DNA of 64,000 nucleotides from Bdellovibrionota bacterium (lineage in GTDB: Bacteria > Bdellovibrionota > Bdellovibrionia > Bdellovibrionales > JAEYZS01). Made by a program: the position numbers and the translations under genes. The DNA is taken from the NCBI GenBank assembly GCA_963169805.1, contig CAUJDY010000052.1, positions 19,579-83,578 of the forward strand. The letters are read 5' to 3'. Positions 6,358 to 20,756 of the stretch are shown one piece after another (the first letter of the stretch is position 1; every line of letters starts with the position of its first letter). The notes beneath the pieces are model-generated. The model was not told the origin of the DNA and made no database searches. It saw nothing but the letters and a program-made list of their open reading frames with translations.

Positions 6358-7959
6358 TTATATTTTTTTGGTAATAGGATAGCGGCGACCCGTCCCAAAA
6401 GCTCTATCGCTAACTCGCAAAATAGGTGCGGCTTGCCATCTTTTAAATTCTGCCAGCATCATACGGCGGTATATATCTTCTTCGAATTCATTTTTTGGAG
6501 ACACTCCCGTGACTATGAACTTTTCTACCAAAGAGTCCAATATATTATAAGGTGGAAGAGAGTCTTCATCTTTTTGGTTTTCTCTTAACTCTGCGGTAGG
6601 AGGTCTTTTAATTATTTCTGCTGGTATTATTGCTTGAGATTCATTGATGAGATGACACAAATCTACTACCTGAGATTTTAATAAATCACCAATCGGAGCT
6701 AACCCTCCGCACATGTCTCCATAAAGTGTCGCATAGCCCATAGCATACTCAGCTTTGTTGCCCGTTGTAAGTAAAAGTGAGTTTTTGAAATTAGAGTAAG
6801 CCATCAAGAAAGTTCCACGTATTCTCGACTGAAGATTTTCATGAACTAAACCAAATTCCTTGATTCCTAAACTGATATCAAGCTCATCAAAATATGTTTT
6901 GTAGACACCGTTCGTATCTATATTCAAAAATTCTACACCCAAATTTTCTGTCAGTTTAAGTGCTAAATCAAAACTCAATTGAGAGCTGTAGGGACCTGGT
7001 AGCGCAATGCATGTCACATTGCGAGCGCCAACGGCTTGGACTGCGAGACAGGCTACAAGCGCCGAATCTATGCCTCCACTTAGTCCAAGATGAATTTTTT
7101 TAAAATTATTTTTTTGAGTGAAATCTCTAATTCCTAAAACTAGAGCATTTTTTAACAACACTAAAGAGTCCTGTTTGGTATTCTTGTGCTTAGTAGGTTT
7201 ATTAAAATCGTATATTCCAAAGTTTTCTTCAAAGTATGGAGCCTGATACAACTTTTTCCCTTTGAAGTCTAAAATAAAACTACCGCCATCAAATACAATT
7301 TCATCTTGGGCTCCACACTGATTCACATAAACAACAGGCGCCTTCATCTTACGCGCTGTCTGTGCAACAACATTCTCCCGCTCTTTTATTTTATTAAACG
7401 AATAAGGAGAAGCAGAGATATTTACAACCAAATCGACTGTTTGCTTTATCTCTGTAATTGGGTTGACCGGATAGCGGTGTCCTTGATCGCCCCAGCCCCA
7501 AATATCTTCACATATGGTTACAAGAATTTTTTTGTTTTTAAATTTGAGAATATTGTCCTTCATTTTCCCAGAAGCAAAATGTCTTTTCTCATCAAAAACA
7601 TCATAGTTAGGCAGAAGTTCTTTGTAAAAATACTTAGGAGGCTTTTCTTTCTCTAGAAAAACAGCAGTATTGCGTCCGCAAAGTCCATCAGATTTTTTAT
7701 CTAATGTAACAGCACCAAATAAGACTCCGAGACCTTTTGGAATATGTTTTTGTATAATTTTAATTTTTTTTATTTGCTCTTGAATTAAAAGCTGGTTCTC
7801 AAGCAAATCTGATGGCCAATAGCCAAACAAACAAAGCTCTGGAAGCAAAAGGAGATCGCACCCATTTTTGTAGGCTAATTCAATCCCCTCAATTATCTTG
7901 CGAGAATTTTGCTCAAAGTGAGCGATCGTTGTATTGATTTGAGCGAGGCACAGCTTCAT
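6358..7959 (-). CDS. nadE: Glutamine-dependent NAD+ synthetase
   Basis: N-terminal CN-hydrolase domain (LLLPELCLFGY, ICEDIW). C-terminal NAD synthase domain with the PP-loop GLSGGIDSA. 533 aa. Confidence 0.95.
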   Translation of the reverse strand: MKLCLAQINTTIAHFEQNSRKIIEGIELAYKNGCDLLLLPELCLFGYWPSDLLENQLLIQEQIKKIKIIQKHIPKGLGVLFGAVTLDKKSDGLCGRNTAVFLEKEKPPKYFYKELLPNYDVFDEKRHFASGKMKDNILKFKNKKILVTICEDIWGWGDQGHRYPVNPITEIKQTVDLVVNISASPYSFNKIKERENVVAQTARKMKAPVVYVNQCGAQDEIVFDGGSFILDFKGKKLYQAPYFEENFGIYDFNKPTKHKNTKQDSLVLLKNALVLGIRDFTQKNNFKKIHLGLSGGIDSALVACLAVQAVGARNVTCIALPGPYSSQLSFDLALKLTENLGVEFLNIDTNGVYKTYFDELDISLGIKEFGLVHENLQSRIRGTFLMAYSNFKNSLLLTTGNKAEYAMGYATLYGDMCGGLAPIGDLLKSQVVDLCHLINESQAIIPAEIIKRPPTAELRENQKDEDSLPPYNILDSLVEKFIVTGVSPKNEFEEDIYRRMMLAEFKRWQAAPILRVSDRAFGTGRRYPITKKI

Positions 7960-8413
7960 TGTCTTCCTTGGATTTTTTATCCAAGTACTCTTTTACAGGA
8001 CGACGGCCAGAAAATCCATCTCTATAACCGTGCCAGTATAAAATATGCTCCTCAGGATACTTCCAACAGAAATATCCATCTCCCGAATCAAAATCAGCAA
8101 TCCAAAGCCCTTTAGTAAGCGCGCCTAGTTTTTCAACTTTGTTCTGCCATTCAGATATTAAAGCATTCACTTCACTCTCAAGCTGAGGTGTAGCCTTATC
8201 GTTCTGAGACAAAACATCCAAACGCTGGATGAGCTTGTTCACTTTTTCGCTATATGTTTTTGTAATACGAACAATCACAGGCAAAACATGACTGAGGTCT
8301 TCATAAGAAAATACTTTCTTAGGCTTTAACTCAACAATGTTCGCGCGATTATCGTATAAGAGATCCCGAATCCCTGACATCCCCTCTTTTCCCCCATCAT
8401 TTTTATGACCCAT
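7913..8413 (-). CDS. DUF2203-like protein
   Basis: The C-terminal block GLWIADFDSGDGYFCWKYPEEHILYWHGYRDGFSGRRP matches my recollection of the DUF2203 signature (LVDF...LCWK.GE..I.YWH....GF.GRRP). Its 3' end overlaps the nadE start by 47 nt. Confidence 0.55.
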   Translation of the reverse strand: MGHKNDGGKEGMSGIRDLLYDNRANIVELKPKKVFSYEDLSHVLPVIVRITKTYSEKVNKLIQRLDVLSQNDKATPQLESEVNALISEWQNKVEKLGALTKGLWIADFDSGDGYFCWKYPEEHILYWHGYRDGFSGRRPVKEYLDKKSKEDNEAVPRSNQYNDRSL

Positions 8414-8526: not shown

Positions 8527-9096
8527 ATGATCCAAAAAATGGATATTAAATCTTTAATTTCCCTAGTAAATTCAAATATTTCCGCAATCGAACACACTCA
8601 CCCCAGCACTGCGTACCAAGCCGTCAACTCAGCACTGTTAATGAGCTCAATCACAACACTTGTAGAAATGATACCCACTCTTGAAGGAAGAATTGTAAGT
8701 TTAATTTTAAGTGACAAGCCTATTTCCGATCTTCACGAGCAAATTCTAAAAAAGACGAACCATTCTTCGCACAGATATTTACAAAACATATCTTCTTCAA
8801 CTCTTAAAGTTTTTTATCACCTACATAAGCCTGAGTTTAAAGGCAGTATTGCAATACTAGAGGTTAACAATCTTATAACACTACTAGAACTTGTAAATGA
8901 GGCAACGAAATCCCAAATTGAAGTTGTCAACCATAACAACTCAAGAGGCTTTATGAACAATACTCTGTTTTTGAGTGCAGAGCCCAGTCTGCTTAAACAT
9001 TTCTTAGAAAAAAACAGTGAACGTATTTCTAAGCACCAGATAATTGAAAAACTGAGCACATCACTTTTGAGTTTTTTTAGCTTCGCTGAACCATAA
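8527..9096 (+). CDS. Hypothetical protein, 189 aa
   Basis: The ORF fills an otherwise empty interval. I recognised no motifs. It overlaps the neighbouring TPR gene convergently by 36 nt. Confidence 0.4.
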   Translation: MIQKMDIKSLISLVNSNISAIEHTHPSTAYQAVNSALLMSSITTLVEMIPTLEGRIVSLILSDKPISDLHEQILKKTNHSSHRYLQNISSSTLKVFYHLHKPEFKGSIAILEVNNLITLLELVNEATKSQIEVVNHNNSRGFMNNTLFLSAEPSLLKHFLEKNSERISKHQIIEKLSTSLLSFFSFAEP

Positions 9097-10140
9097 CGAC
9101 TGACACTTTTCTGTTTGATCCATATATTTTTTGTAAAGCTTCGGTTGTCCTAATTTATCTAAGTTATATGCATGCCTTCTCATCTCTAGTTCTGCCTCCT
9201 TAACATACGGACAAGCATTAAGAAATGACTGCAATGATTGATCATATTTTTTCAGCTGGAACTGTGCTTTTGCAAGCTCTAAAAAACAATCTCCGGCTTT
9301 TGGATTAATTATTCCACATTGACCGAAATGACTCTCCGACAACTCATAATTCTTAGCATTTTGACTTAGAAGCCCAGCTTCTCTTTGAGTCTGTTCTGAT
9401 TTTTTGAATTGCTTTGCTGCAGAGTAAAGAATTTTTCGCGCTTGATCTTCTGCTTCGGTATACTTAAATGCTAATGCAAGATTAACATGATTTTCTGCTA
9501 CATCAGGAGATTTAACAAGCGCAGATTGGCAAATATTTTTTGCACTATCAAAATACTTTTCTTTTATCTCTATTTTACACATCTCATTGAGCCACTTTGA
9601 TTTTTCACCAAATTTTTCAATTATTTCCAACAATATTAATCTTGCATCATAAGTATTTTTTTTACCAAGATAGAACTGATAAAGAGCTTCGTAGGCTTTC
9701 TCATACTTAGGCGCCTCCGAAATAGCTTGTCTGAAATTCTTGATAACTTCCTCTGTCTTGTTTATCTCTGCATACGCTTCACCTAAACGAACAAAAAAAC
9801 CAGGAGGCTGCTTCCCCATTGTTTTAATAATCTCGAGCGCACGCACCTCTTCTAGATGATCTTGTTTTTCATGAGAGATTTTTGCAATTAGCTCCAGACC
9901 ATCCACACTTTGCGGATCATTTCCAAGGCGTGCATTTTTGATTGCAGATTCATAATCTTTAATCAAAAGATAGTTCTTAGCTAGATCTAGAAAATCTTGG
10001 GGAGCCTTTTTACTTTTTGCGTCTATGTTTTTTATTCTTTGTTTAACCTGTGCGCTTGTAACAATTTTTTTTGCATATAATGAAAATCCAAGAAAGTGTG
10101 TACTCAAAATAAAAAATATCAAAAACTTCATAATTGCCAC
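9061..10140 (-). CDS. Secreted TPR-repeat protein (possible TadD-like accessory factor)
   Basis: Signal peptide without a lipobox Cys, then repeated TPR-like helices with an A/Y/L pattern. It starts 3 nt downstream of the pilin-like gene 10144..11022 and is divergent from the flp operon. Confidence 0.65.
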   Translation of the reverse strand: MAIMKFLIFFILSTHFLGFSLYAKKIVTSAQVKQRIKNIDAKSKKAPQDFLDLAKNYLLIKDYESAIKNARLGNDPQSVDGLELIAKISHEKQDHLEEVRALEIIKTMGKQPPGFFVRLGEAYAEINKTEEVIKNFRQAISEAPKYEKAYEALYQFYLGKKNTYDARLILLEIIEKFGEKSKWLNEMCKIEIKEKYFDSAKNICQSALVKSPDVAENHVNLALAFKYTEAEDQARKILYSAAKQFKKSEQTQREAGLLSQNAKNYELSESHFGQCGIINPKAGDCFLELAKAQFQLKKYDQSLQSFLNACPYVKEAELEMRRHAYNLDKLGQPKLYKKYMDQTEKCQSLWFSEAKKTQK

Positions 10141-10143
10141 CCA

Positions 10144-11022
10144 TCAATCTTTGCTTTTTTGATATTGTAGCACTTGCCCACCAAAGAAAACAACAATTGC
10201 CAAAATCATCCCAATGATCAGAATGTATCTTAAAAAATCTGGTATTGATAAACTCGTGTCATCATCTACTTTTTGTACTCTCTTTTCATCTGTGTTTGTT
10301 GGAACACGCTTGATACTTCTCAAATCTTCACCATCACCTTGAGCTCCTGATGAGGCCACAGATGGTGGAGCTCCCTCACGCTCTTCTTCTTCTGTAGAAT
10401 TGGATCTTCCATAAACAGGAACATATTCTTGCCGTCCAGAATTTTCATTAAAATCCTCTCCCGTTGCATTATTCATAAACACAGGAGGTTGATTCCCGTC
10501 AGAGGAACCAGAACTCTTACTACCACTCGATGTCACCGGAACACGAACCCCTCTTCCTGAAGCCTGGTCTCCAAAATCACCCGAGGAACCCACAGGAATG
10601 AGCGACCCACCGGCTCCTCCCTCTGCTCCAGAACCTGCTTCAAGTTCTGCAACGTTAACAGGAGTAGAACCCCCTCCCTCGGAACCATCACTCCCGCCCG
10701 CAAAACCTTCATCTAAAATTGGAGGTCGTCCTTCCTCAATTGTAAAAGGCTGAAATTCGGATTCACACTCAGATGCATCCGCTCCACCCGTATCGCCACC
10801 CAAGCGCGGAAGCTCTCCTGTTTCAAGTAAACACTGAAAATATGCTCCAAAATAATTATTAACAAAACGACGCGTTCCATCTGCAAGGCCAAAAAGTAAA
10901 CCACCCAATACAATCACTACAACAAAGAGCAACAGCACGTATTCGAGTACAGCCTGCCCTCGTTGATGTATGTTACTAACATAGTGGTTTCTCATTATTT
11001 TCTCATCGTCATTCATACTCAT
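10144..11022 (-). CDS. Prepilin-like protein with G/S/E-rich disordered region and C-terminal TM anchor
   Basis: Flp/TadE-type class III signal: HQRG/QAVLEYVLLLFVVVIVLGG. This is followed by about 200 aa of low-complexity G/S/D/E sequence. The C-terminal hydrophobic helix is FLRYILIIGMILAIVVFFGG, followed by a basic tail. Confidence 0.6.
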   Translation of the reverse strand: MSMNDDEKIMRNHYVSNIHQRGQAVLEYVLLLFVVVIVLGGLLFGLADGTRRFVNNYFGAYFQCLLETGELPRLGGDTGGADASECESEFQPFTIEEGRPPILDEGFAGGSDGSEGGGSTPVNVAELEAGSGAEGGAGGSLIPVGSSGDFGDQASGRGVRVPVTSSGSKSSGSSDGNQPPVFMNNATGEDFNENSGRQEYVPVYGRSNSTEEEEREGAPPSVASSGAQGDGEDLRSIKRVPTNTDEKRVQKVDDDTSLSIPDFLRYILIIGMILAIVVFFGGQVLQYQKSKD

Positions 11023-11086
11023 AAAGTTGAATCAAAATGAGATTTTCTCTCTGAAATTTGAGTCAAAACCAGACCAGACAAACGTC

Positions 11087-11132
11087 TCTAGACAAAAATC
11101 TAGACACAGATTGTTGCTAAACTATTGCTAAA
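11087..11132. promoter_or_regulatory. Two pairs of helically phased direct repeats in the divergent tad promoter region
   Basis: TCTAGACA occurs at 11087-11094 and 11099-11106 (12-bp phase). TTGCTAAA occurs at 11114-11121 and 11125-11132 (11-bp phase). Confidence 0.3.
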
Positions 11133-11209
11133 AATTCTCATTTAAGAACGCACCCACTAAAACCGATAAAGAGTTGATAAACACCAAAAGAAAAAAAGGG
11201 GGAAACATC

Positions 11210-11395
11210 ATGAAAAAACTCAAGAATTTTGCAAAACGCTTTTGCAAAGACGAATCTGCTCAGGGGGCTACTGAGTATATTCTTCTTCTAGTGGTTGTTG
11301 TTGGCTTAATTATGGTTTTTAAAGATCCAATCAAGAGAATGGTCTCTGATAAGTTGGGTCAACTACAAAATCAAATCCAACAAGTGAATCCATAA
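11210..11395 (+). CDS. flp: Flp-family pilin (61 aa)
   Basis: The leader and motif FCKDESAQG/ATEYILLLVVVVGLIMVF closely resemble Caulobacter PilA FLKDESG/ATAIEYGLI. A GGGGGA RBS lies 5 nt upstream of ATG 11210. The track ORF from TTG 11174 is probably an over-extension. Confidence 0.85.
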   Translation: MKKLKNFAKRFCKDESAQGATEYILLLVVVVGLIMVFKDPIKRMVSDKLGQLQNQIQQVNP

Positions 11396-11404
11396 GGTTA
11401 GCGT

Positions 11405-11602
11405 ATGACGACGGAGTTGGCGCTGCTTCTTACAATTTTTATGTTTGTCGTTATTGGAGTCTTTAAAACTCCAACGAAAACATTTGAAGAGGCAGGACCG
11501 CGACTTGGCCTGAGATTAGAAAAACAAATGGAAACTGGCACGGGGTTTAACAAGAAATCTTTTAATACCCCCAAGCCAATTACATGGGGACCAAAAAACT
11601 AA
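11405..11602 (+). CDS. Small leaderless pilin-like hydrophobic-N-terminus protein (65 aa)
   Basis: It begins MTTELALLLTIFMFVVIGVF. An in-frame TAG immediately upstream excludes a longer leader. It sits between flp and the prepilin peptidase gene. Confidence 0.45.
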   Translation: MTTELALLLTIFMFVVIGVFKTPTKTFEEAGPRLGLRLEKQMETGTGFNKKSFNTPKPITWGPKN

Positions 11603-12099
11603 TGTTTGGAACTATTTTACTACCAAGTATTATACTAGCGGTGTCTGCATTTGAAGACATTCGCACGAAGAGAGTAACAAATAAACTTCTTCTAAGTTTA
11701 TTTGCGGTAGTTTTTATTGTTCAGTTATTAGTTTTAAAGCAGTTTGAGTTTGCTGAAAGTATATCTGGAGTCGTAACTGCCTTTCTTCTTCTCTCTCCTC
11801 TATTTTTATTAAAAGCTTTAGGGGCAGCAGACATCAAAGTATTTATGCTTCTTGGTTTTTTAACAGGGCCTTACCAAATTTTGAATATCTTTATATTTAG
11901 CCTTGTATGTGCCGTTATATTTGGCTTTGCAATAGTAGTACAAAAAAAAGGATCTGCTGTTTTTTTCCAAAACATAAAAAATATTTTAACATTCAAAAAA
12001 GACCAGGTTTCAAATCTACAACATATACCGTTTACTGTAGCGCTTTTGGCAGGATGGATATGCTACTTGGTCTACCAATACCATGGGAGGATTATATGA
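11584..12099 (+). CDS. tadV: Flp prepilin peptidase (A24 aspartic peptidase, CpaA/TadV type)
   Basis: Polytopic membrane protein with two catalytic-Asp contexts, FEDIRTKRV and GAADIKVF. An alternative ATG at 11602 would give a TAATG junction with the upstream ORF. Confidence 0.85.
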   Translation: MGTKKLMFGTILLPSIILAVSAFEDIRTKRVTNKLLLSLFAVVFIVQLLVLKQFEFAESISGVVTAFLLLSPLFLLKALGAADIKVFMLLGFLTGPYQILNIFIFSLVCAVIFGFAIVVQKKGSAVFFQNIKNILTFKKDQVSNLQHIPFTVALLAGWICYLVYQYHGRII

Positions 12100-12362
12100 A
12101 TAAAAATCCAACCGTGACAAATAATCAAAAAGGTCAAGTCGCTGTAGAATATATTCTTCTAACAGTAGTTATGGCAGGACTAGCCATCGCTGCGCATAAT
12201 TATATATCAAGCACAAATATGCTAGGTGGATACGTACAAAAACCCTGGCAATTAATATCTAGTATGATTGAGACAGGTGTTTGGGGTGAAGCTCGAGTGG
12301 CTAGGACCCAACACCCAGGCAAACTCTATAGACATTTATCACTTGAGGGAGAGCCAGAATGA
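12096..12362 (+). CDS. Flp/TadE-type prepilin-like protein (88 aa)
   Basis: NQKG/QVAVEYILLTVVMAGLAIA has the canonical G/xxxxEY motif. GGGAGG RBS. ATGA overlap with the tadV stop. The track ORF from 11907 is an upstream extension running inside tadV. Confidence 0.7.
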   Translation: MNKNPTVTNNQKGQVAVEYILLTVVMAGLAIAAHNYISSTNMLGGYVQKPWQLISSMIETGVWGEARVARTQHPGKLYRHLSLEGEPE

Positions 12363-12928
12363 ATTCAAATGGAGGCATAACCCTTGATTTTATTTTTGCA
12401 CTTGTACTGGTACTATCTATGACCTTACTTCTAGGAGTTTTTAGTTTTTCATTAGCAATAATAGAAAGCACTCAGTATATAGCTTACTCCGCATCACGTG
12501 CATATTTTCCTGCTCATATTAATGAGGAGACTCAAAAACGCATGGCTGATGAAAAATTTGAAGAGTTAACAAAATCAAGTGGTTTCAAATCATTTTTAAA
12601 ACCAGACTTATTCAAAATATCTGTGGATCGTATTGGGGATACTGGGGATATCTATCAACGGGCAACAACTAAAGATATTCTAGATGGAGTTAGGCTAAAA
12701 ATTATCTTAGAGATACTTGATATTCAACTACCCGGCCTAGGTACTACTCAAGGGCAACCCTACGAGACTTTTGTTACATCTCTGCTAGGAAGAGAATCAA
12801 CATCTGAAGAATGTCAAAATTTTATGCAACAGCGATTCAATGCTCTACTAAATGTTCCAGGTTCCACATACTCGTCTTCATCAATTCAACCAGAGCAGTA
12901 CTTTGCTTTCGAAGATAACGGATGTTGA
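12359..12928 (+). CDS. TadE/TadF-like pseudopilin candidate (189 aa)
   Basis: N-terminus NGG/ITLDFIFALVLVLSMTLLLG is a pilin-like hydrophobic helix with Asp in place of Glu. ATGA overlap with the upstream gene. Confidence 0.5.
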   Translation: MNSNGGITLDFIFALVLVLSMTLLLGVFSFSLAIIESTQYIAYSASRAYFPAHINEETQKRMADEKFEELTKSSGFKSFLKPDLFKISVDRIGDTGDIYQRATTKDILDGVRLKIILEILDIQLPGLGTTQGQPYETFVTSLLGRESTSEECQNFMQQRFNALLNVPGSTYSSSSIQPEQYFAFEDNGC

Positions 12929-12929
12929 T

Positions 12930-13412
12930 ATGAAAAAAACGAATATTAGAAAAATTATTGAAAATGAAAAGGGAATAGCAACAATGGAGTCAGCTTTGCT
13001 TCTGACAATCTTTGTTGTATTTATGACTTATTGTATTGGTTTCTTTGGCGTAGTTCACTCTGGAATATTAAATTCTATTTCTGCTAGGGCCTACACATTT
13101 GAAACATTTAGAAACAGATCTAATCTAACCTACTTCAGAGATGAATTAGGTACTCAATCATTACACTATAACAAATATGGATTTCGTGCTCATGGAATTA
13201 TATCTGAAAAATCACCTGTTGGGGCAACTGATGGCCAATGGTACGTCACAGAACGAACTATAGCTCAAGGGAAAGAATCTCCTACCGTAACTAACAGAAG
13301 AAATCCAAATCAATTAGATCAAGCATTAAGACGCGAAACAGAAGGCGCCAATCCTGTATGGATTAAAACAACATATGGAATCTGTTTAAATCAAACCTGT
13401 GGGGATGGTTAA
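12930..13412 (+). CDS. TadE-like pseudopilin candidate (160 aa)
   Basis: EKG/IATMESALLLTIFVVF places Glu at +5. The ATG lies 1 nt after the upstream stop. The track ORF from 12852 is an extension. Confidence 0.6.
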   Translation: MKKTNIRKIIENEKGIATMESALLLTIFVVFMTYCIGFFGVVHSGILNSISARAYTFETFRNRSNLTYFRDELGTQSLHYNKYGFRAHGIISEKSPVGATDGQWYVTERTIAQGKESPTVTNRRNPNQLDQALRRETEGANPVWIKTTYGICLNQTCGDG

Positions 13413-13413
13413 T

Positions 13414-14304
13414 ATGAACCAAAATCAAACACGCACATTATGGATATCAATAGGACTTGGTATTTTTTCAATGATTCTAATCTACAGCTATTCGCAAGAG
13501 AAAAAAGCGGAGTACGATAAAAGATATGGTACTTCAAAAAGAATTTTGATTGCAGCCAAAGATATTTTAGAAATGCAAACGATTGATGAAACGATGATTG
13601 AATTTGCAGAAGTTCCTCAGGAGTTTGCCCAACCTGGATCCATAACAGAGCCAGATTTGGTTATTAATCGTGTTGCAGCTACACCTTTTAAAAAAGGCGA
13701 ACAGATATTAAACACCAAAGTACTAAGCCTTGGAGCAAACACTGGACTTTCAAATCAAGTAGCACCAGGAAAAAGAGCTATTTCAATTCCTATTGACGAA
13801 GCCAGAGGTGTGTCAAAACTCGTTCAACCAGGTGATCGAATTGATATTCTTTCAAGCATAGAAGTTGGTAAAGGAATTAATAAAGATTTAGAGGTTAAAA
13901 CAATACTTCAAGATGTGGTTGTTCTAGCTACAGGTTTAAAAATTACAAATAATATTCCAAGAGTTCGAGAAAAAGCAGGATTTTCCAATGAGGAGTTCTT
14001 TAGAAATTTAAATGGAGATACAAGCTTTTCGACAGTTACAATTGAAGTGGATCCTCAAGAAGCACAAAGTTTAGTCTATATAATGGCGACTTCTCCTGGA
14101 AGTTTATTTTTCTCTCTTAGAAATCCAAATGATCGAATCAAAAATACTATTCCAACATCTACAGTAAATTCTGTTTTAGGGAGAGCATCCATACCACAGT
14201 TTACTGCTCCAGCACCGCAACCTGTGGTTCAAAAGCCAGCTCCACTCCCGGTTAAACGTGTCCCTGCAAGCACTCGCAGAGGACCATTCATAGAGGTGAA
14301 ATAA
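13414..14304 (+). CDS. cpaB: Flp pilus assembly protein CpaB/RcpC
   Basis: N-terminal TM, a SAF-like segment (ILIAAKDILEMQTIDETMI) and the RcpC-type GKRAISIPIDEARGVSKLVQPGDRIDIL. The start could also be 13399 or 13405. Confidence 0.85.
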   Translation: MNQNQTRTLWISIGLGIFSMILIYSYSQEKKAEYDKRYGTSKRILIAAKDILEMQTIDETMIEFAEVPQEFAQPGSITEPDLVINRVAATPFKKGEQILNTKVLSLGANTGLSNQVAPGKRAISIPIDEARGVSKLVQPGDRIDILSSIEVGKGINKDLEVKTILQDVVVLATGLKITNNIPRVREKAGFSNEEFFRNLNGDTSFSTVTIEVDPQEAQSLVYIMATSPGSLFFSLRNPNDRIKNTIPTSTVNSVLGRASIPQFTAPAPQPVVQKPAPLPVKRVPASTRRGPFIEVK

Positions 14305-15773
14305 TGAAAACACTCCTCATACTCTTTATTGTAATACTTTTACCCTCAATTGGGTTAGCCCAAGATAATAAAAGTGCTACAAAGAAATTTTTGAATTTAA
14401 CCGTTGGACTTTCCACTGACGAAAAGCTGCCGTTTTTGCCTGATGACCCTCAGTTTACAGGAGACTTTAAAAAAATCACAAAACTCTCTGTAGCAAAAGA
14501 CATGAAAATTCTTAGATTTGATCCAACAGCTGAGGGAGTTGGCACATTAAACGTACTAGATAATCGCGGAAGAAAAGTGGCAGAGTACGTTATAACAATT
14601 AAAAAGAGTAAGCTAGAAAATGTTGTGCGTGAAATGAGAGCTCTTCTTGGAGAAATAGAGGGAATCTCAATTAAAATTATCAACAATAAAGTTGTTGTTG
14701 ACGGAGAAATCTTACTTCCAAAGGATATGAACCGTATTATGAGCGTTGTTAGTCAATACGGAGACCAAGCAGCGACCATAGTCACTTTGAGTCCAATTGC
14801 ACAAAAGAAGATCGCAGAAATTATTGAAAAAGATATCAATAATCCTGAAATTACCGTGAGAGCAGTTAATGGTAAATTTATTTTGGAAGGACTCGCGGGA
14901 TCAAAAGAAGAAAAAGACAGAGCAGAAATTATAGCAAAAACATATGTCCCAGACTATGTTGTTGGTGCAGCAGAAAAAACTGGCGACATTAAGGTACAAC
15001 GATCTCTTCCTGTCTTAAACTTGATTGAATTAAAACCAGCAGGAGAAGCTCCTCCAAAAAAAATCGTACAGCTTGTTGTTCATTATGTTGAGCTACAAAA
15101 AGACTACACGCGTGGATTTAGATTTCAATTCACACCTACACTAGAAGATCAAACCAAAATTGACTTCCAAAGTGGAAGCAGATCACCCTCTGGTTTTATT
15201 ACTTCCATTACTGGTATAGTTTCAAACTTACTTCCCAAGCTGAATTGGGCTAAGGAGCACGGGCACGCAAGAATTCTGCAAACATCCTCTGTTATTGTTC
15301 TAGAGGGACAGGCTGGAAAAATCCAATCCGTTACAAAAGTTCCTTACCAAACGACTGGTGCGCAAGGGCAAATTCAAACTAGTTTTGAAGATGCAGGTAT
15401 CATTACAGATATTACACCTACAATTCCCAATCCGAATTCAGATAGTATAAATTTATCAGTTAGCTTTAAATTAAAAAGCTTGATCGGACAGACAGAAAGC
15501 GGCCCACTCATTTCTGACAACTCAATTCAGACGGCAGTAACAGTTCGCTCATCTCAAAGCGCAGCAATTGGTGGATTAGTTTCTAATTCGAGTGGAACTG
15601 ATTATAATAAATTACCTAAGGGTACTTCTGATAATCCGCTCATCTCTCTCTATTCCTCTAAATTCTTCAGAAGAAATCAGTCGCAGTTCGTTGTTTTTAT
15701 TACGCCAATTATTAAAAATTCAGCTTCTGCAGGCTCTGAAAAAATTAAAGCCAAATTTCGATTAAGAGAGTAA
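14304..15773 (+). CDS. cpaC: Tad secretin CpaC/RcpA
   Basis: Signal peptide, N-terminal BON/N-domain-like region and a C-terminal secretin domain (ARILQTSSVIVLEGQAGKIQSV...VVFITPIIK). Its ATG overlaps the cpaB stop. Confidence 0.9.
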   Translation: MKTLLILFIVILLPSIGLAQDNKSATKKFLNLTVGLSTDEKLPFLPDDPQFTGDFKKITKLSVAKDMKILRFDPTAEGVGTLNVLDNRGRKVAEYVITIKKSKLENVVREMRALLGEIEGISIKIINNKVVVDGEILLPKDMNRIMSVVSQYGDQAATIVTLSPIAQKKIAEIIEKDINNPEITVRAVNGKFILEGLAGSKEEKDRAEIIAKTYVPDYVVGAAEKTGDIKVQRSLPVLNLIELKPAGEAPPKKIVQLVVHYVELQKDYTRGFRFQFTPTLEDQTKIDFQSGSRSPSGFITSITGIVSNLLPKLNWAKEHGHARILQTSSVIVLEGQAGKIQSVTKVPYQTTGAQGQIQTSFEDAGIITDITPTIPNPNSDSINLSVSFKLKSLIGQTESGPLISDNSIQTAVTVRSSQSAAIGGLVSNSSGTDYNKLPKGTSDNPLISLYSSKFFRRNQSQFVVFITPIIKNSASAGSEKIKAKFRLRE

Positions 15774-15776
15774 AAA

Positions 15777-17942
15777 ATGACACAAGGTTCGTACATCATT
15801 TCTATAATAGGAGGAAAGGGCGGAGTTGGGAAATCTGTCTTTGCTGCCAATTTTGCATTGGCAACTCTTAAAGAAATGAAGAGCCGCGTGCTCCTTATGG
15901 ATCTAGACGGTGAATCGTGTGGAGATCAAAATGTCATTCTGGGTGTAAGACCCTTAAAGACCATAGGTGAATTAGCTCAGTCTAATATACAAATTAGTAT
16001 GCAGACAGTTGGTACACTGGTTACAAAGCATAGCTCTGGTCTTGGATATATCGGAGCTGTAAAATCCCCATCAGAACAACTTTCTCTTGCGCCTGAGCTT
16101 ATAGATTCTCCACTTAATCAACTCAGCACTGTCTTTCCATATATAATTTGCGATCTTGGCTGTCACTTAGGTGATTTACAAATGAAGATCTTAGAGAAAA
16201 GTACCTGTATCATTCTAGTGACAACTCCTGAGGTTTTGGCAATTAATCAATCTCTTAAAATGATGAATCAGTTGATTGCTACAACTTTACCTACAGATGT
16301 TTTTCAAATTGTTCTTAATAAAGTTACAAATCAGTCTTTGAATCCACAAATGATTGCGCAAACTTTCAAAAAACAACCTCTTGGTATGATCCCGCAGGAC
16401 GATAATTCTTCATATGCGGCTCTTCAAGCTGGCAATCCAGTTGTTACCATGCAGCCACAATCTCAAATTGCTCAAGCTTATCATGATCTAGCAAGAAGAA
16501 TTACTTCTCCTGCCCTTTTACAAAAACTTGCAAGCCTTTCAAAACCAACAAACTTGGCTAATCCTTTTCAGCAGAATAGCAATGCTGGAAATAAAAATAT
16601 TGTAAGCAAACCCGGCAGCATTGATCGAAAATCTAATCCTAGAAATATTTTTAAAGAGCAAGTTCACAGAGAGCTTATTGAGGCAATGAATCTTCGAAAA
16701 GGTATCACTGAAACAAAGGGTGATCCTGAAAAAGAAAAACAACTGCAAATAAAAACTCAGCAAGCAATTTCTCAGATTGTAGACAAACTTCAGCCAGGAA
16801 TGGCTAGAGATGAGCGATCTCAAATAATGAAAGAAGTTTTAGATGAGGCGCTTGGATTAGGACCTCTAGAAAATTTACTAGATGACGACTCTGTAACAGA
16901 AATTATGGTTAATGGCTTTGATAAAATATTTGTTGAAAGAAGCGGTCGAATACAACTCAGTCCAATCACATTTACCTCTAATGTGCATCTTCGAAATGTC
17001 ATTGAGAGAATCGTAACCCCACTTGGTAGACGCATAGACGAAAAGACTCCTTATGTCGATGCACGATTAAAAGATGGAAGCCGTGTGAATGCTGTTGTCG
17101 AACCAATTGCCATTGATGGGCCGTCATTAACTATTCGAAAGTTTGCTAAAAAACCTGTTACTACTGATAATTATATTCAGTGGGGCTCTCTAACTGAACC
17201 GATGATTGATTTTCTAAGAATCTGCGTAGAAAACGGACTAAATGTCGTTATTTCTGGAGGCACCGGATCTGGTAAAACAACTTTACTTAATGTTATGTCG
17301 AGCTTCATCCCCGCAACTGAAAGAATTGTAACCGTTGAAGATGCTGCTGAGTTGCAATTAAAGCAAGAACATGTCGTCAGATTAGAAACCCGGCCAGCCA
17401 ATATGGAAGGAACTGGGTCTATAACAATTCGCGACCTCGTTAGAAATTCATTACGCATGAGACCGGATCGAATTGTGGTGGGAGAATGTCGAGGAGGCGA
17501 AGCACTTGATATGCTATCTGCAATGAATACCGGCCACGACGGATCTATGACAACTGTTCACGCCAATTCTCCGCGCGAAGCAATTGGAAGACTAGAAACA
17601 TTATGTCTTATGGCAGGGATGGATCTACCTGCTAAGGCAATACGCGAGCAGATTTCAGGTGCTGTTGATTTAATAATTCAGATTTCAAGACTGTCTGATG
17701 GCAGTAGAAAAGTGCTTAGCATCACTGAAGTTGCAGGCATGCAAGGCGAAACCATAACTCTCCAAGAAATTTTTAGATTTAAAGAGGAGGGCTTCGATAA
17801 AAATAGAAAAATCATTGGACAATTTCTAGCATCTGGCTTGATTCCTACCTTTATCGAAGAGTTTGAGCGAAAGGGTATTAAAATTCCAAGAACACTTTTC
17901 TCAAATGACAACAACCTCAAAAAAGTCTCTGGAGGTCGTTAA
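15777..17942 (+). CDS. Fusion protein: TadZ/CpaE-like MinD/ParA ATPase domain + TadA/CpaF secretion ATPase
   Basis: Residues 12-20 are GGKGGVGKS, a deviant Walker A of MinD/CpaE type. Residues ~250-295 are a low-complexity linker. Residues ~295-721 are a complete CpaF: GLGPLENLLDD, Walker A GGTGSGKT at 494-501, RPDRIVVGECRG, GHDGSMTTVHAN. Confidence 0.9.
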   Translation: MTQGSYIISIIGGKGGVGKSVFAANFALATLKEMKSRVLLMDLDGESCGDQNVILGVRPLKTIGELAQSNIQISMQTVGTLVTKHSSGLGYIGAVKSPSEQLSLAPELIDSPLNQLSTVFPYIICDLGCHLGDLQMKILEKSTCIILVTTPEVLAINQSLKMMNQLIATTLPTDVFQIVLNKVTNQSLNPQMIAQTFKKQPLGMIPQDDNSSYAALQAGNPVVTMQPQSQIAQAYHDLARRITSPALLQKLASLSKPTNLANPFQQNSNAGNKNIVSKPGSIDRKSNPRNIFKEQVHRELIEAMNLRKGITETKGDPEKEKQLQIKTQQAISQIVDKLQPGMARDERSQIMKEVLDEALGLGPLENLLDDDSVTEIMVNGFDKIFVERSGRIQLSPITFTSNVHLRNVIERIVTPLGRRIDEKTPYVDARLKDGSRVNAVVEPIAIDGPSLTIRKFAKKPVTTDNYIQWGSLTEPMIDFLRICVENGLNVVISGGTGSGKTTLLNVMSSFIPATERIVTVEDAAELQLKQEHVVRLETRPANMEGTGSITIRDLVRNSLRMRPDRIVVGECRGGEALDMLSAMNTGHDGSMTTVHANSPREAIGRLETLCLMAGMDLPAKAIREQISGAVDLIIQISRLSDGSRKVLSITEVAGMQGETITLQEIFRFKEEGFDKNRKIIGQFLASGLIPTFIEEFERKGIKIPRTLFSNDNNLKKVSGGR

Positions 17943-18817
17943 TGTCAATTTTTGCTAATGAACTCGTATTTACAATTCTCTTTGGACTTTGTATATTTGG
18001 AATTTCTTATTTTCAATCTGAAAAAGTAATTGATTGGCTGAGGCAAAAAAGCTTAGGAAGTCGTGAATACGTTATTCAAAAATTAGAACTCATGTTTGTC
18101 GATGTAGATCATAAAAAACTAACAGCAACTATGCTACTTTTAAGTCTTGGTATAGGTTTTCTAGTTTTTTTATTAGTTTGGCCAAACTTAATAGTAGGAT
18201 TTATACTTGGATCCATAGTTACGTACTTTGGATGGCAGGCTCCTAAGTTTCTTGTAGACTATCTCTTTGAAAAGCGATCTGACTTACTTGTAAATCAAAT
18301 GGTTGACGGTTTAACAATCATGTCAAACGGAATTCGTTCTGGCCTAAGTGTTACTCAATCTATGGAAAGAGTTGTAGATAATATGCCAAACCCTATTCGC
18401 CAAGAATTTGGTCTAGTCTTATCACAAATTAAACTCGGCTTAAGTATAGAAGAAGCTCTTTCAAATTTGGGAAATAGGATCCCAGCTCCTGATATTCAAA
18501 TGTTTGTTACAGCAATTAACATACTAAAGGAAACTGGCGGAAACTTAGGAGAAACTTTTGCAACGATGGTTGAAACCATACGGGAAAGACAGAAGATTCA
18601 TAAAAAAATAGAAGCTCTAACCGCTCAGGGCGTAACTCAGGGAATTATTATTACATGTATCCCTTTTGTCCTAATGCTTGTTTTCTTTTTTGTTGATCCT
18701 GGTTTTATCAAACCCTTATTTACAACAACACTTGGAATCATACTTTTATTTGTGATGCTTTCTTTACAGATTATCGGTGGTCTGATGATTCGAAAAATTG
18801 TTAAGATTAAAGTCTAG
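17942..18817 (+). CDS. tadB: Tad platform protein (T2SS-F domain, TadB/TadC family); single copy
   Basis: 291-aa polytopic protein with one GspF-like cytoplasmic domain (GLSVTQSMERV...PIRQEFGLVLSQIKLGLSIEEAL). TAATG overlap with the ATPase gene. No second paralogue follows. Confidence 0.85.
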   Translation: MSIFANELVFTILFGLCIFGISYFQSEKVIDWLRQKSLGSREYVIQKLELMFVDVDHKKLTATMLLLSLGIGFLVFLLVWPNLIVGFILGSIVTYFGWQAPKFLVDYLFEKRSDLLVNQMVDGLTIMSNGIRSGLSVTQSMERVVDNMPNPIRQEFGLVLSQIKLGLSIEEALSNLGNRIPAPDIQMFVTAINILKETGGNLGETFATMVETIRERQKIHKKIEALTAQGVTQGIIITCIPFVLMLVFFFVDPGFIKPLFTTTLGIILLFVMLSLQIIGGLMIRKIVKIKV

Positions 18818-18903: not shown

Positions 18904-20547
18904 GTGATGAAATTGGTCATGAGTGTTCAACTCAGTCTTCTCGCTTTTATAGGAATCTATTCTCTCCCAGCCACTGCCCTTGTAGATATGCAAGGCGCAA
19001 ACTTTACAGAAACATTTGTTGATATGGAAATACCTGACAGTGGTTATAATCTAAGAGTCGAAAGAGCATATAATAGCAGAACTTTGTTTAATGGAATTTT
19101 TGGCTTTGGAATGTGTTCCAATTTTGAAACAAAACTTGAAATCTTGGCAGATGGAAGGCTCAAACGAATTGAATGTGGATCAGGTCAGGAAATCGATTTT
19201 ATTCCAAGAACTTTTTCTGACAAAGACGTTCAATCTGGGATCAAAAAAATAATGTCTGCACTTAAAAAAGAAAATCCAAAAATGACAGCTACTCAATCTA
19301 AGGCTATCGAAAAGAGATTAACAGATGACCCTCTTTACAGAGATGAACAAAATATAAAGTTTGGAATTGAAAAGGCAATTAAAGAAGACACTGTATTTTA
19401 CTCTGTATCTAACTCAACTGATAAAATTGTATTTAAAAAAACACATTATCAAAGAGACTTAGAAGATGGCACCTCTGAGCGATTTGATCTGCAGGGTCGA
19501 ATTTCCTTTATGTATGATAAGAATAAAAACTTTATTAAATTTGACTACGATGGAAACAAGCTAATCTCCGTAACGAGTGCATCTGGAAATAAGCTTACAC
19601 TTTCTTACTACCAAACAGGTAAAGTAAAGGAAATCAGAGGGCCTCGCGGTCTGTCTTCAATTTATAAATATGATAAAATTAACGATTTATCGTATGTTAT
19701 GACAGCCGCTAAAGAAGAATATGAGTATAAGTACGATGCTCTCCACAATGTGGTAGAAATCACATACCCAGACAAGACAAAGAAAAAACTTGGATATAAT
19801 CAAGATAAAGACTGGGTTACAAGCCTCACAGATAGAAACGGCTGCACTGAAACATATAACTATGAGCTTTCCAAGACAGATCCTAAAAACAACTTCTTTT
19901 CCTCTGTAGAAAAAAAATGTGAAGGAAAAGTTGTTAATAAAAGTCGTTACGGATTTTGGTTTAAAGATAGGAAGAATAAAAGCAGTAGCTTTCTATCAAA
20001 ACTTACAATTGATATTAATGGAGTAAAATCAGAAATTGAATATCATGATGTTTTTGAAAAACCATTACGTATTAAAAGACAAAATGAACTCACAGTTTAC
20101 GATTACTTTGCAAACGGATTACTTAAGTCAAAAAAAGTAGGAAAATCCCTCATTACCTATACATATAACAAACAAAACCGTGTATCTGAGGTTCGTGATG
20201 GCAAGAAGTTTACAAAGTTTACTTATGATCCTAAGGGAAATCTAACTTATGCAGAAAACTCAGAAGGACAAAAAGTGCAATTAAACTACGATACTCGAGG
20301 AAGAATTGTTAAGTTGATAGATCAAGCTAAGCGACTTATTAATATTGAATATGATGATAAAGTCGGAAAACCTAGCATAGTAGAAAGGCCCGGCGTCGGA
20401 ACAATCTTTGTAACTTATGATTCAAGCGGAACGGTTCAGAAAGTTAGATCTAAGGATAATGATCCCACCGTTGCAGTCCAGGTTGCCTCAGCATTTAATA
20501 ACCTTATAGAAATTGTAACTCCAGCAGGAGTTCAGGTAGGCATATAA
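18904..20547 (+). CDS. Secreted YD/RHS-repeat protein (547 aa)
   Basis: Signal peptide. RHS-type N-terminal block LRVERAYNSRTLFNGIFGFGMCSNFE. Many YD repeats (YDGNKLISV, YKYDALHNVVEITYPD, YTYNKQNRVSEV, FTYDPKGNLTY, LNYDTRGRIVK). No recognisable C-terminal toxin or cleavage motif. Confidence 0.85.
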   Translation: MMKLVMSVQLSLLAFIGIYSLPATALVDMQGANFTETFVDMEIPDSGYNLRVERAYNSRTLFNGIFGFGMCSNFETKLEILADGRLKRIECGSGQEIDFIPRTFSDKDVQSGIKKIMSALKKENPKMTATQSKAIEKRLTDDPLYRDEQNIKFGIEKAIKEDTVFYSVSNSTDKIVFKKTHYQRDLEDGTSERFDLQGRISFMYDKNKNFIKFDYDGNKLISVTSASGNKLTLSYYQTGKVKEIRGPRGLSSIYKYDKINDLSYVMTAAKEEYEYKYDALHNVVEITYPDKTKKKLGYNQDKDWVTSLTDRNGCTETYNYELSKTDPKNNFFSSVEKKCEGKVVNKSRYGFWFKDRKNKSSSFLSKLTIDINGVKSEIEYHDVFEKPLRIKRQNELTVYDYFANGLLKSKKVGKSLITYTYNKQNRVSEVRDGKKFTKFTYDPKGNLTYAENSEGQKVQLNYDTRGRIVKLIDQAKRLINIEYDDKVGKPSIVERPGVGTIFVTYDSSGTVQKVRSKDNDPTVAVQVASAFNNLIEIVTPAGVQVGI

Positions 20548-20756
20548 TGGTCATATTATTCACTTTTTTTGTTAGTTTTTTGGCTGCTCAAAATCAAACT
20601 CAAGCAACAGAGGCTGCTGTAAGCACGAGTTGCGATGAATATATCCCTGGGGTTATTTGTACTCAAAAATACCAGTCACGCACCCGTCTATCTGATGAAG
20701 CTCCCAAGCCAAGTACTTCCGTTACACCCCCAGCAGCTTCTGCAGGGTCGAACTAA
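20547..20756 (+). CDS. Small secreted Cys-pair / Pro-Ser-Ala-rich protein (69 aa)
   Basis: Its start overlaps the YD-protein stop (TAATG). Hydrophobic N-terminus MVILFTFFVSFLAAQ. Two Cys residues (SCDEYIPGVIC). The tail looks disordered: APKPSTSVTPPAASAGSN. Confidence 0.5.
   Translation: MVILFTFFVSFLAAQNQTQATEAAVSTSCDEYIPGVICTQKYQSRTRLSDEAPKPSTSVTPPAASAGSN

Follow-up and report, generated by a model that had tools for sequence, protein, structure and literature searches.

A pilin-like protein with a predicted second, C-terminal membrane helix is encoded in Bdellovibrionales, often beside the tad locus

The gene and the predicted architecture of its product

We analysed a stretch of 64,000 nucleotides from a Bdellovibrionota bacterium (assembly GCA_963169805.1, contig CAUJDY010000052.1, positions 19,579 to 83,578 of the forward strand), below called the window, which carries a complete Bdellovibrio-type tad locus. 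Divergently from the flp1 pilin gene of this locus lies the gene under study. Its product, named here the leashed pilin-like protein, starts like a type IV prepilin, continues with a long disordered linker and ends with a predicted transmembrane (TM) helix. It belongs to a family that is real, conserved and unannotated. We propose tentatively, as a reading that falls somewhat short of probable, that the protein acts in the Tad machine as a processed, tethered minor-pilin module, which would engage the machine together with a tetratricopeptide repeat (TPR) partner. The features of the gene are as follows:

10144..11022, minus strand: coding sequence of the leashed pilin-like protein, 292 aa from ATG 11022 or 283 aa from the alternative ATG 10995 (M10)
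10957..11022, minus strand: leader peptide, aa 1-22, which ends with G22 (-1); predicted prepilin-peptidase site G22/Q23
10807..10956, minus strand: pilin-like alpha-1 helix, aa 23-72, with Q+1, E+5, Y+6, a hydrophobic first TM segment (TM1, ~aa 29-51) and the near-invariant NYFGxYxxCLLETGELP
10765..10833, minus strand: Cys pair C64...C86, a putative periplasmic disulfide loop, followed by the motif FTxAxGRP (from conservation)
10258..10806, minus strand: disordered Gly/Ser/acidic linker, aa 73-255 (from structure prediction and composition)
10177..10236, minus strand: predicted C-terminal TM helix (TM2), aa 263-282 (FLRYILIIGMILAIVVFFGG), with invariant I269, G281 and Q283
10144-10173, minus strand: 9-residue tail VLQYQKSKD after the C-terminal helix, and the stop codon

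The open reading frame (ORF) of 292 aa at 10144..11022, reported in a first-pass annotation of this DNA, is exact, and a gene caller run independently on another contig gave the same protein. Translation may really begin at M10 (ATG 10995), since P0002-P0004, the closest homologues in the family alignment, begin at the equivalent position; the protein would then have 283 aa and a leader of 13 residues. The N-terminus reads MSMNDDEKIMRNHYVSNIHQRG/QAVLEYVLLLFVVVIVLGGLLFGLA, with RG22/Q23AVLE27Y28 followed by VLLLFVVVIVLGGLLFGLA. A 19-residue Kyte-Doolittle scan returned exactly two hydrophobic segments, at residues 20-51 (peak 3.07) and 257-287 (peak 2.69), and the values between them do not exceed 0.47.

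We modelled the protein by AlphaFold2 using a 29-sequence family alignment (predicted template modelling score 0.25). The model contains a single long helix at residues 4-68, where the predicted local distance difference test (pLDDT) is 72-91, and a second helix at 260-291, with pLDDT of 81-91 across 261-290. The pLDDT falls below 50 at 97-217, 219-256 and most of 76-95. The residues G, S, D and E make up 49.7 % of positions 73-255, and together with the predicted disorder this bears out the long low-complexity region described in the first-pass annotation. Its other structural claim, that the C-terminal hydrophobic segment is a TM helix, is also upheld, by the hydrophobicity peak, the confidently predicted helix, the acidic flank and the slightly basic tail.

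With its invariant Cys pair, the acidic residues ahead of TM2 and the slightly basic tail, the protein fits a hairpin topology, in which both ends would be cytoplasmic and the Cys loop and the linker periplasmic. The linker of the window protein contains three basic-hydrophobic-Pro motifs, GRGVRVP (156-162), GRQEYVP (196-202) and KRVP (238-241). We considered an anti-sigma or sensor role and rejected it, because the cytoplasmic parts would consist only of the leader of 13-22 aa and the tail of about 9 aa. Searches for C-terminal sorting signals (PEP-CTERM, GlyGly-CTERM, MYXO-CTERM and similar) gave no NCBIfam match at E≤0.1, and a signal of the exosortase/rhombosortase type was rejected on account of the tail, which is only weakly basic, and of the conserved GGQ, which sits where the helix would meet the cytoplasm.

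Family size, distribution and annotation

A word-indexed search recovered 41 relatives with lengths of 264-347 aa, none of them with a Pfam domain. The profile search against 1.84 billion cluster representatives (clusters at 50 % identity) resulted in 929 clusters at E≤1e-3 and 625 at E≤1e-30. Homologues were found down to E 1e-90, and the best 150 cluster matches all extend over the full length and share one layout. Half of the protein is low-complexity and the protein is without database annotation, as would be expected from a chance ORF or a low-complexity mis-call. Such an artefact is hardly credible, however, given the number of clusters, the uniform architecture of the best matches and the invariant motifs carried by both ends.

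In a scan of one genome per species, based on a 20-sequence alignment sharing CLLETGELP, we identified relatives in 122 species. The 80 species listed are all Bdellovibrionales, Bdellovibrionaceae, Pseudobdellovibrionaceae or unclassified metagenome-assembled genomes (MAGs), and cultured Bdellovibrio strains are among them. A search started from the homologue of a Bdellovibrio sp. added proteins of B. bacteriovorus, every one named 'hypothetical'.

The family profile met only low-complexity chance matches among PDB sequences (E≥0.24), and full-text searches of papers about the hit and tad loci of Bdellovibrio and the Kil system of Myxococcus turned up no such protein. The first-pass annotation knew of no Tad component with this architecture, and none appeared in Pfam, NCBIfam, PDB sequences or the literature searched. 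To our knowledge, no pilin with a C-terminal membrane anchor has been described. Such a pilin would represent an undescribed architecture, a variant within the type IV pilin superfamily or the Tad accessory components.

The family seems to have stayed invisible to annotation through the lack of a Pfam or NCBIfam model, the low-complexity middle and a start called at an internal Met in B. bacteriovorus 109J. The annotated start of the 109J protein Bb109J_c3557 (WP_338621050.1; AP029059.1, L087:5920-6867) is an internal Met within TM1 (MLVIIVALL...). The frame upstream of it reads MLLRVKKSQLTSGLPSERG/QAALEYVLM (SERG/QAALEY), so that the deposited protein is devoid of the prepilin signal. We noticed similar truncations in other database members (P0193, P0233, P0262 and others). 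Such start mis-calls may be a reason why scans for Flp-like motifs missed the family.

Conserved residues and linker length

Alignment columns L30, Y61, C64, L65, E67, G69, E70, L71, P72, C86, I269, G281 and Q283 are invariant, and G22, Q23 and E27 nearly so. The residues recognised by prepilin peptidases, pointed out in the first-pass annotation for this single protein, are almost universally conserved. Of 341 non-identical members, 328 carry both G(-1) and E(+5), and most of the remaining 13 are gene calls that start at an internal Met inside the first helix. Among the 328, Q(+1) is found in 326 and Y or F at +6 in 317, and in 295 the Cys of CLLETGELP lies 42 residues away from G(-1). The net charge of the annotated leaders has a median of +3.

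From the CLLE motif onward, 111 of 115 members contain exactly two Cys residues, mostly spaced by 14-28 residues, and C64 and C86 could form a putative disulfide. The length of the linker varies little (median 187 aa, sd 15, range 168-240, n=107), and its sequence is poorly conserved, at about 30 % identity across the family. Three linker motifs, GRxx[KR]VP, GRxx[YF][VI]P and [KR][KR][VI]P, the last one ~25 residues before TM2, are positionally conserved and enriched over shuffled sequences in the half of the family to which the window protein belongs. Overall, between roughly one third and one half of the members keep them, and they decay in the distant ones. A tightly kept length with a free sequence would be expected of a spacer or ruler. 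Of 107 members, 101 have a net acidic flank of 12 residues ahead of TM2, and 99 have a neutral or basic tail.

A crude test for covariation between TM1 and TM2 by mutual information with average product correction (285 sequences; low power, effective number of sequences ~200) gave no inter-helix signal. The top-scoring pairs were registration artefacts around the GQ..EY motif.

Relation of the N-terminal module to pilins

Three genes of the tad locus are needed for the comparison with pilins:

11174..11395, plus strand: flp1, major Flp-type pilin (PF16982 Flp1_like, E 4.5e-11), divergent from the gene under study; probable start ATG 11210, 61 aa (gene call)
11584..12099, plus strand: TadV-type A24 prepilin peptidase (PF01478 Peptidase_A24, E 3.5e-16), the presumed processing enzyme, 560 bp from the gene under study
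12096..12362, plus strand: PP1, 88-aa minor pilin (KG/QVAVEY...SSMIETG; Class_IIIsignal, E 1.1e-4), which gave the longest match to the N-terminal module

By these Pfam matches, the divergent flp neighbour and the locus TadV are what the first-pass annotation took them for. A24 peptidases cleave after G(-1) at the cytoplasmic face, assembly of pilins requires E(+5), and minor pilins prime filaments from the platform. In Aggregatibacter, cleavage of Flp1, TadE and TadF by TadV reportedly needs G(-1), and function needs E(+5).

The window protein shows the hallmarks of type IV prepilins of class III, namely a positively charged leader, R21-G22 and E27/Y28 followed by the hydrophobic stretch with the Kyte-Doolittle peak of 3.07. 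The 'canonical Flp/TadE' context proposed earlier is thus present at the level of the motif (RG/QAVLEY), but not at the level of profile hidden Markov models (HMMs), where Pfam gave no match at E≤0.1. Sub-threshold matches to Flp1_like were recovered for 14 of 29 family members at E≤1, the best with E 0.0011. The protein falls outside the Flp pilins (PF04964/PF16982), as it scores below the HMM threshold and has 292 aa and a second TM segment against the ~50-80 aa of these pilins, and it falls outside TadE/TadF (PF07811) with an HMM E of 1.9.

For more sensitive comparisons we built families from the fetched loci. The N-terminal module aligned by hhalign to the Flp1 family of the same genomes with a probability of 97.7 % (E 2e-12, 42 columns) and to the PP1 family with 97.4 % (E 9e-12, 56 columns), scores that come partly from hydrophobic-helix composition and from alignments trimmed around the motif. 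The alignment with PP1 reaches the end of the helix, where ...CLLETGE of the leashed protein stands opposite ...GMIENG of PP1. BLASTP between the two window proteins gave E 3e-5, and PP1 as a phmmer query recovered three family members at E ~3e-4. Moreover, Q at +1 is common to the leashed protein, the Flp1 of the locus ([AG]/QGATEY; motif ES[AG]/QGATEY) and PP1 (G/QxxxE). From these sequence comparisons we take the N-terminal module to be a paralogue of the Flp-like and minor pilins of the locus, placed outside the curated Flp/TadE families. The whole window protein would be a longer, fused relative of PP1 and not its orthologue.

The likeness to known systems is uneven. With Flp-type pilins (Flp1_like PF16982 and Flp_Fap PF04964, such as Bd0119 Flp1 and the window flp1) the protein shares the short basic leader, the small residue at -1, Q+1, E+5 and Y+6, some 20 hydrophobic residues, an all-helical module of ~46 residues and the encoding in a tad locus. 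However, these pilins have ~60 aa compared with 292, and the leashed protein adds the Cys-Cys loop, the 190-residue disordered linker and the second TM helix. Because of this linker and helix, it would not be releasable as a fibre subunit. Among the minor pilins of Tad systems (TadE/TadF, KilL/M and the small Flp-like adapters KilK/KilO of Myxococcus, and PP1), it is PP1 that resembles it in the G/QxxxE motif, the length of the helix and LLETG versus MIETG, but PP1 lacks the Cys pair, the disordered extension and the C-terminal anchor.

Large minor pilins of the TadG/KilN type are similar in that a pilin-like N-terminal helix is combined with a much larger extracytoplasmic part and the proteins are Tad-associated. 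TadG, proposed as the tip subunit (PMC12075869), differs by its folded modular domains such as vWA, in place of which the leashed protein has the disordered linker and the C-terminal TM helix. Bd0108 of the B. bacteriovorus hit locus, a disordered protein implicated in pilus regulation via its folded partner Bd0109 (PMC4267844), is likewise a periplasmic disordered polypeptide at the same type of tad locus. The likeness is one of working and not of family, as Bd0108 is a soluble Sec-secreted protein of 101 aa with no pilin motif and no TM anchor, and we saw no sequence relationship. A functional analogy can also be drawn with the basal or stop pilins of sortase-assembled pili of Gram-positive bacteria, envelope-attached subunits that end or anchor the fibre, although their chemistry and fold are unrelated.

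The relationship to PP1 allows the protein to be read as a regulator, a decoy that mimics a pilin. Its tethered module would compete with Flp1 or PP1 for the peptidase or the priming slot and would keep a pre-assembled polar machine idle until a signal arrives, either TPR binding or proteolysis of the exposed linker. The paralogy to PP1 with the common xΦΦE[TN]G motif (Φ, hydrophobic residue), the reported assembly of the Tad machine at the invasive pole before prey contact, the expected protease accessibility of a disordered linker and the regulatory role known for a disordered hit-locus protein are consistent with it. Nevertheless, we consider a decoy quite improbable, as the protein has no cytoplasmic or sensory domain, the sequence gives no pointer to a specific protease site and the tight constraint on the length of the linker would be left unexplained.

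Genomic context

The genes downstream of the leashed protein gene in the window are these:

9061..10140, minus strand: TPR protein, directly downstream; TPR_19, TPR_2 and TPR_14 above the Pfam cut-offs; probable start ATG 10131
7913..8413, minus strand: DUF2203 protein; overlaps the start of the NAD synthase gene by 47 nt
6358..7959, minus strand: glutamine-dependent NAD synthase (nadE)

We tallied 80 species-level loci out of the 122 matched species, using the window proteins as phmmer queries against six-frame ORFs. The family gene is tad-adjacent in 45 of them, 20 are free of tad genes over at least 5 kb upstream and in 15 the flank is too short to judge. The first-pass annotation had set beforehand that homologues lying apart from tad loci would count against it; among the 65 loci that can be judged, 45 have the gene adjacent to flp1 and divergent from it. 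In the tad-adjacent loci flp1 lies 40-3300 bp upstream on the opposite strand and is followed by tadV, pseudopilins, rcpC, rcpA, tadZA and tadB, and the family gene and flp1 share the divergent intergenic region.

A homologue of the TPR protein adjoins the family gene in 57 of the 80 loci, divergently in 54 and on the same strand in three. Its gene usually lies between the family gene and flp1; in the clade of the window it is co-directional and downstream. DUF2203 and nadE follow the family gene in most loci, tad-adjacent and tad-distant alike. The most constant neighbours are therefore the TPR gene and DUF2203-nadE, and not flp. The stable unit consists of the TPR gene and the family gene, with DUF2203 and nadE in many cases attached, and most lineages keep it head-to-head with the tad locus. 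The pairing with the TPR gene survives inversions, which argues for functional coupling.

One MAG locus (L002/L046, JALZUS010000020.1) has its tad locus split around the family gene. Divergent from it, on the upstream side, are flp1, flp2, tadV and two genes for pseudopilins; on the downstream side, beyond nadE and on the strand of the family gene, follow the third pseudopilin, rcpC, rcpA, tadZA and tadB. The TPR neighbour is absent from this locus. In the window, an ORF of 189 aa (8527..9096, plus strand) without a Pfam match lies between the TPR gene and DUF2203. It is kept only in the closest relatives of the window (L005, L007, L044, L078).

These tallies bear on the possibility that the family is a Tad-independent envelope protein, which would serve another periplasmic function with the TPR protein and lie close to tad genes by inherited gene order. 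The 20 of 65 judgeable loci without tad genes in the flank, the DUF2203-nadE pair kept downstream in most loci of both layouts and the lack of a significant Pfam pilin match in the window protein all agree with it. However, among the 80 species listed the family was seen, besides unclassified MAGs, only in Bdellovibrionales, the carriers of this type of Tad system, its processing motif is the same as in Flp1 and PP1 of its own genomes, and in the tad-adjacent genomes it shares the intergenic region with flp1. We regard a Tad-independent protein as improbable.

The TPR neighbour

According to the first-pass annotation, the TPR gene follows after 3 nt. This holds for a start at GTG 10140; from the probable start at ATG 10131, chosen by the gene caller, the gap is 12 nt. 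The N-terminus of the TPR protein, MKFLIFFILSTHFLGFSLYA, has no lipobox Cys and reads as a signal peptide or signal-anchor. The TadD pilotin, which escorts the secretin, is a lipoprotein with TPR repeats and a lipobox Cys; the neighbour has TPR repeats, and its N-terminus shows no such Cys. NCBIfam gave only generic partial TPR matches, e.g. to PilW with 28.5 bits against a cut-off of 154. We consider the TPR protein the likely binding partner of the linker or of the Cys loop.

Two known TPR proteins were considered as the partner in B. bacteriovorus and rejected. Bd0075, a protein with a signal sequence that is essential for predation, is a GYF-TPR protein of 965 aa that binds Bd0474, compared with the neighbour of 443 aa. 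For Bd2490/Bd2492, Bd2492 is the known MglA-binding TPR protein.

The TPR neighbour also features in another alternative, in which the leashed protein is a resident bitopic scaffold of the inner membrane. Its pilin-like N-terminus would be a relic that stays uncleaved and serves only as a signal-anchor, a role also proposed for the TadG N-terminus. Both helices would stay in the membrane and the 190-residue periplasmic loop would recruit the TPR protein, e.g. to bridge the platform to the secretin or the peptidoglycan, replacing the TadD and RcpB functions that are missing from Kil-type Tad systems. The two TM helices and a loop long enough (~70 nm contour) to reach the outer membrane and return would suit a scaffold. 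The GxxxA-like conserved face of TM2 and its invariant G281 and Q283 suggest specific helix packing, the TPR neighbour is present in 57 of 80 loci and the short linear motifs of the linker are of the kind bound by TPR domains. Moreover, Kil-type systems were reported to lack TadD and RcpB (PMC8460266). However, a mere anchor would have no need for the near-universal G(-1), Q(+1) and E(+5) or for the fixed spacing of 42 residues to CLLETGELP, and the low-powered covariation test returned no signal between TM1 and TM2. We therefore give the scaffold a modest chance.

Proposed mechanism

The tethered minor-pilin module that we prefer starts from what is directly established: the architecture, the conserved processing and assembly residues, the homology to the pilins of the locus, the constrained length of the linker and the association with tad and TPR genes in the genome. 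The rest of the scheme, from cleavage, topology and the disulfide to TPR binding and the position of the module, we infer as follows. The protein would insert as a hairpin with N- and C-ends in the cytoplasm, and the A24 peptidase of the locus, or PilD where the tad locus has no TadV, would cut after G22. The cut would expose an alpha-1 helix of ~46 residues with Q+1, E+5 and Y+6, capped by the short periplasmic Cys-Cys loop. This module would engage the TadB/C platform or the minor-pilin (priming) complex like a genuine pilin, with the C-terminal TM helix holding the chain in the membrane and the linker of ~190 residues limiting the excursion of the module.

The contour length of the linker is ~70 nm (190 x 0.36-0.38 nm), so such a tether could span the envelope once, or run to the outer membrane and back as a loop. 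The extracytoplasmic TPR protein would bind the motifs of the linker or the loop. The module may sit at the tip (as a leash or ruler), at the base (as a stop or anchor), or never leave the platform (as a scaffold or plug). The roles suggested in the first-pass annotation, an inner-membrane tether, a priming or stop subunit or an element of the alignment complex, may apply within this range. We count the regulation by the disordered Bd0108 at the same type of locus (PMC4267844) as a precedent in favour of the preferred reading.

Several observations weigh against it. The 20 tad-distant loci include Bdellovibrio sensu stricto, where the gene and its TPR neighbour lie apart from the tad locus, and B. 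bacteriovorus 109J, and in all 20 DUF2203-nadE is retained downstream. The TPR neighbour was not detected in 23 of the 80 loci, 21 of which are tad-adjacent. Part of the synteny, including the pairing with nadE, may be inherited gene order and not functional linkage. The whole window protein has no Pfam or NCBIfam match at E≤0.1, and the isolated N-terminus stays below the Pfam pilin thresholds (Class_IIIsignal, E 0.1-0.23; TadE (PF07811), E 1.9 and 9.1 bits; Flp_Fap absent). The compositional share of the hhalign scores belongs here too. Finally, we know of no precedent for a pilin module that threads a secretin with a trailing chain.

The tethered module can be given a more specific form, a membrane-leashed minor pilin that takes a place in the priming or tip complex or ends the filament as its last subunit. 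Its length-constrained tether would act as a leash or ruler, which the TPR partner reads or gates. We consider this form unlikely. If true, the tether would define the reach of the filament away from the inner membrane, at most ~70 nm, or secure it under load while the cell attaches to and enters prey, and a new principle of length or anchorage control would be added to type IV filaments.

Tad pili of the Kil type are essential for attachment to prey and invasion in Bdellovibrio and for contact killing in Myxococcus, and the family, order-wide and usually wired to the tad locus, bears on how such short-range filaments are primed, limited and anchored. A module that engages the machine while tethered would offer a handle on the length, anchorage or gating of the filament and represent a new architecture in the type IV pilin superfamily. 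Even as no more than a scaffold, the protein would account for a missing accessory component in a system without TadD and RcpB.

Other features of the tad locus

The remaining genes of the tad locus in the window are the following:

11405..11602, plus strand: flp2-like small protein with a trimmed Flp motif (MTTELALLL...), starts with MTTELALLLTIF, without leader and G(-1)
12359..12928 and 12930..13412, plus strand: two further pseudopilin-like ORFs (from the ORF list)
13399..14304, plus strand: RcpC (Pfam)
14304..15773, plus strand: RcpA secretin (Pfam)
15777..17942, plus strand: TadZ-TadA fusion ATPase, 721 aa, composed of TadZ (ParA/MinD-like, CbiA) and TadA (T2SSE) (Pfam)
17942..18817, plus strand: single T2SSF platform protein, tadB (Pfam)
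18904..20547, plus strand: RHS-repeat/DUF6531 protein, after tadB
20547..20756, plus strand: ORF of 69 aa with a hydrophobic N-terminus and a Pro/Ser/Ala-rich tail, directly after the RHS protein

The flp2-like ORF is kept in nearly all tad-adjacent loci, and the same trimmed Flp feature was described for Bd0118 Flp2 (PMC5430801). The fusion of TadZ and TadA agrees with the report for B. bacteriovorus. As one T2SSF gene follows tadZA, the equivalent of tadC is presumably encoded elsewhere. By their position after tadB, the two genes at 18904..20756 are a candidate for the Bd0109/Bd0108 'hit locus' pair, in which an RHS protein is combined with a secreted disordered one.

An A24 peptidase gene is situated inside the tad locus of the window and inside most of the related loci. 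According to a 2026 preprint, the tad loci of B. bacteriovorus HD100 are without TadV and PilD is used instead, which looks like a difference between lineages.

Regarding promoters, our scan found no sigma-70-like site on the minus strand upstream of the leashed protein gene, and the overall counts were at chance level. A sigma-28-like site, TAAG-N15-ACCGATAA, is located at 11143..11169 (plus strand), just upstream of the probable flp1 start at ATG 11210. This pattern occurs 10 times in the window, which is not above chance (7.4 +/- 2.8). The site agrees with the published FliA-dependence of Bdellovibrio flp1 promoters, and TTG 11174 would not be the start of flp1 because it is too near to the site. 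Between the leashed protein gene and flp1 there are also two copies of GTCTAGA (palindrome TCTAGA), 5 bp apart, at ~11082..11107 (tgtGTCTAGAtttttGTCTAGAgacg, minus strand), and this pair could be a candidate operator site.

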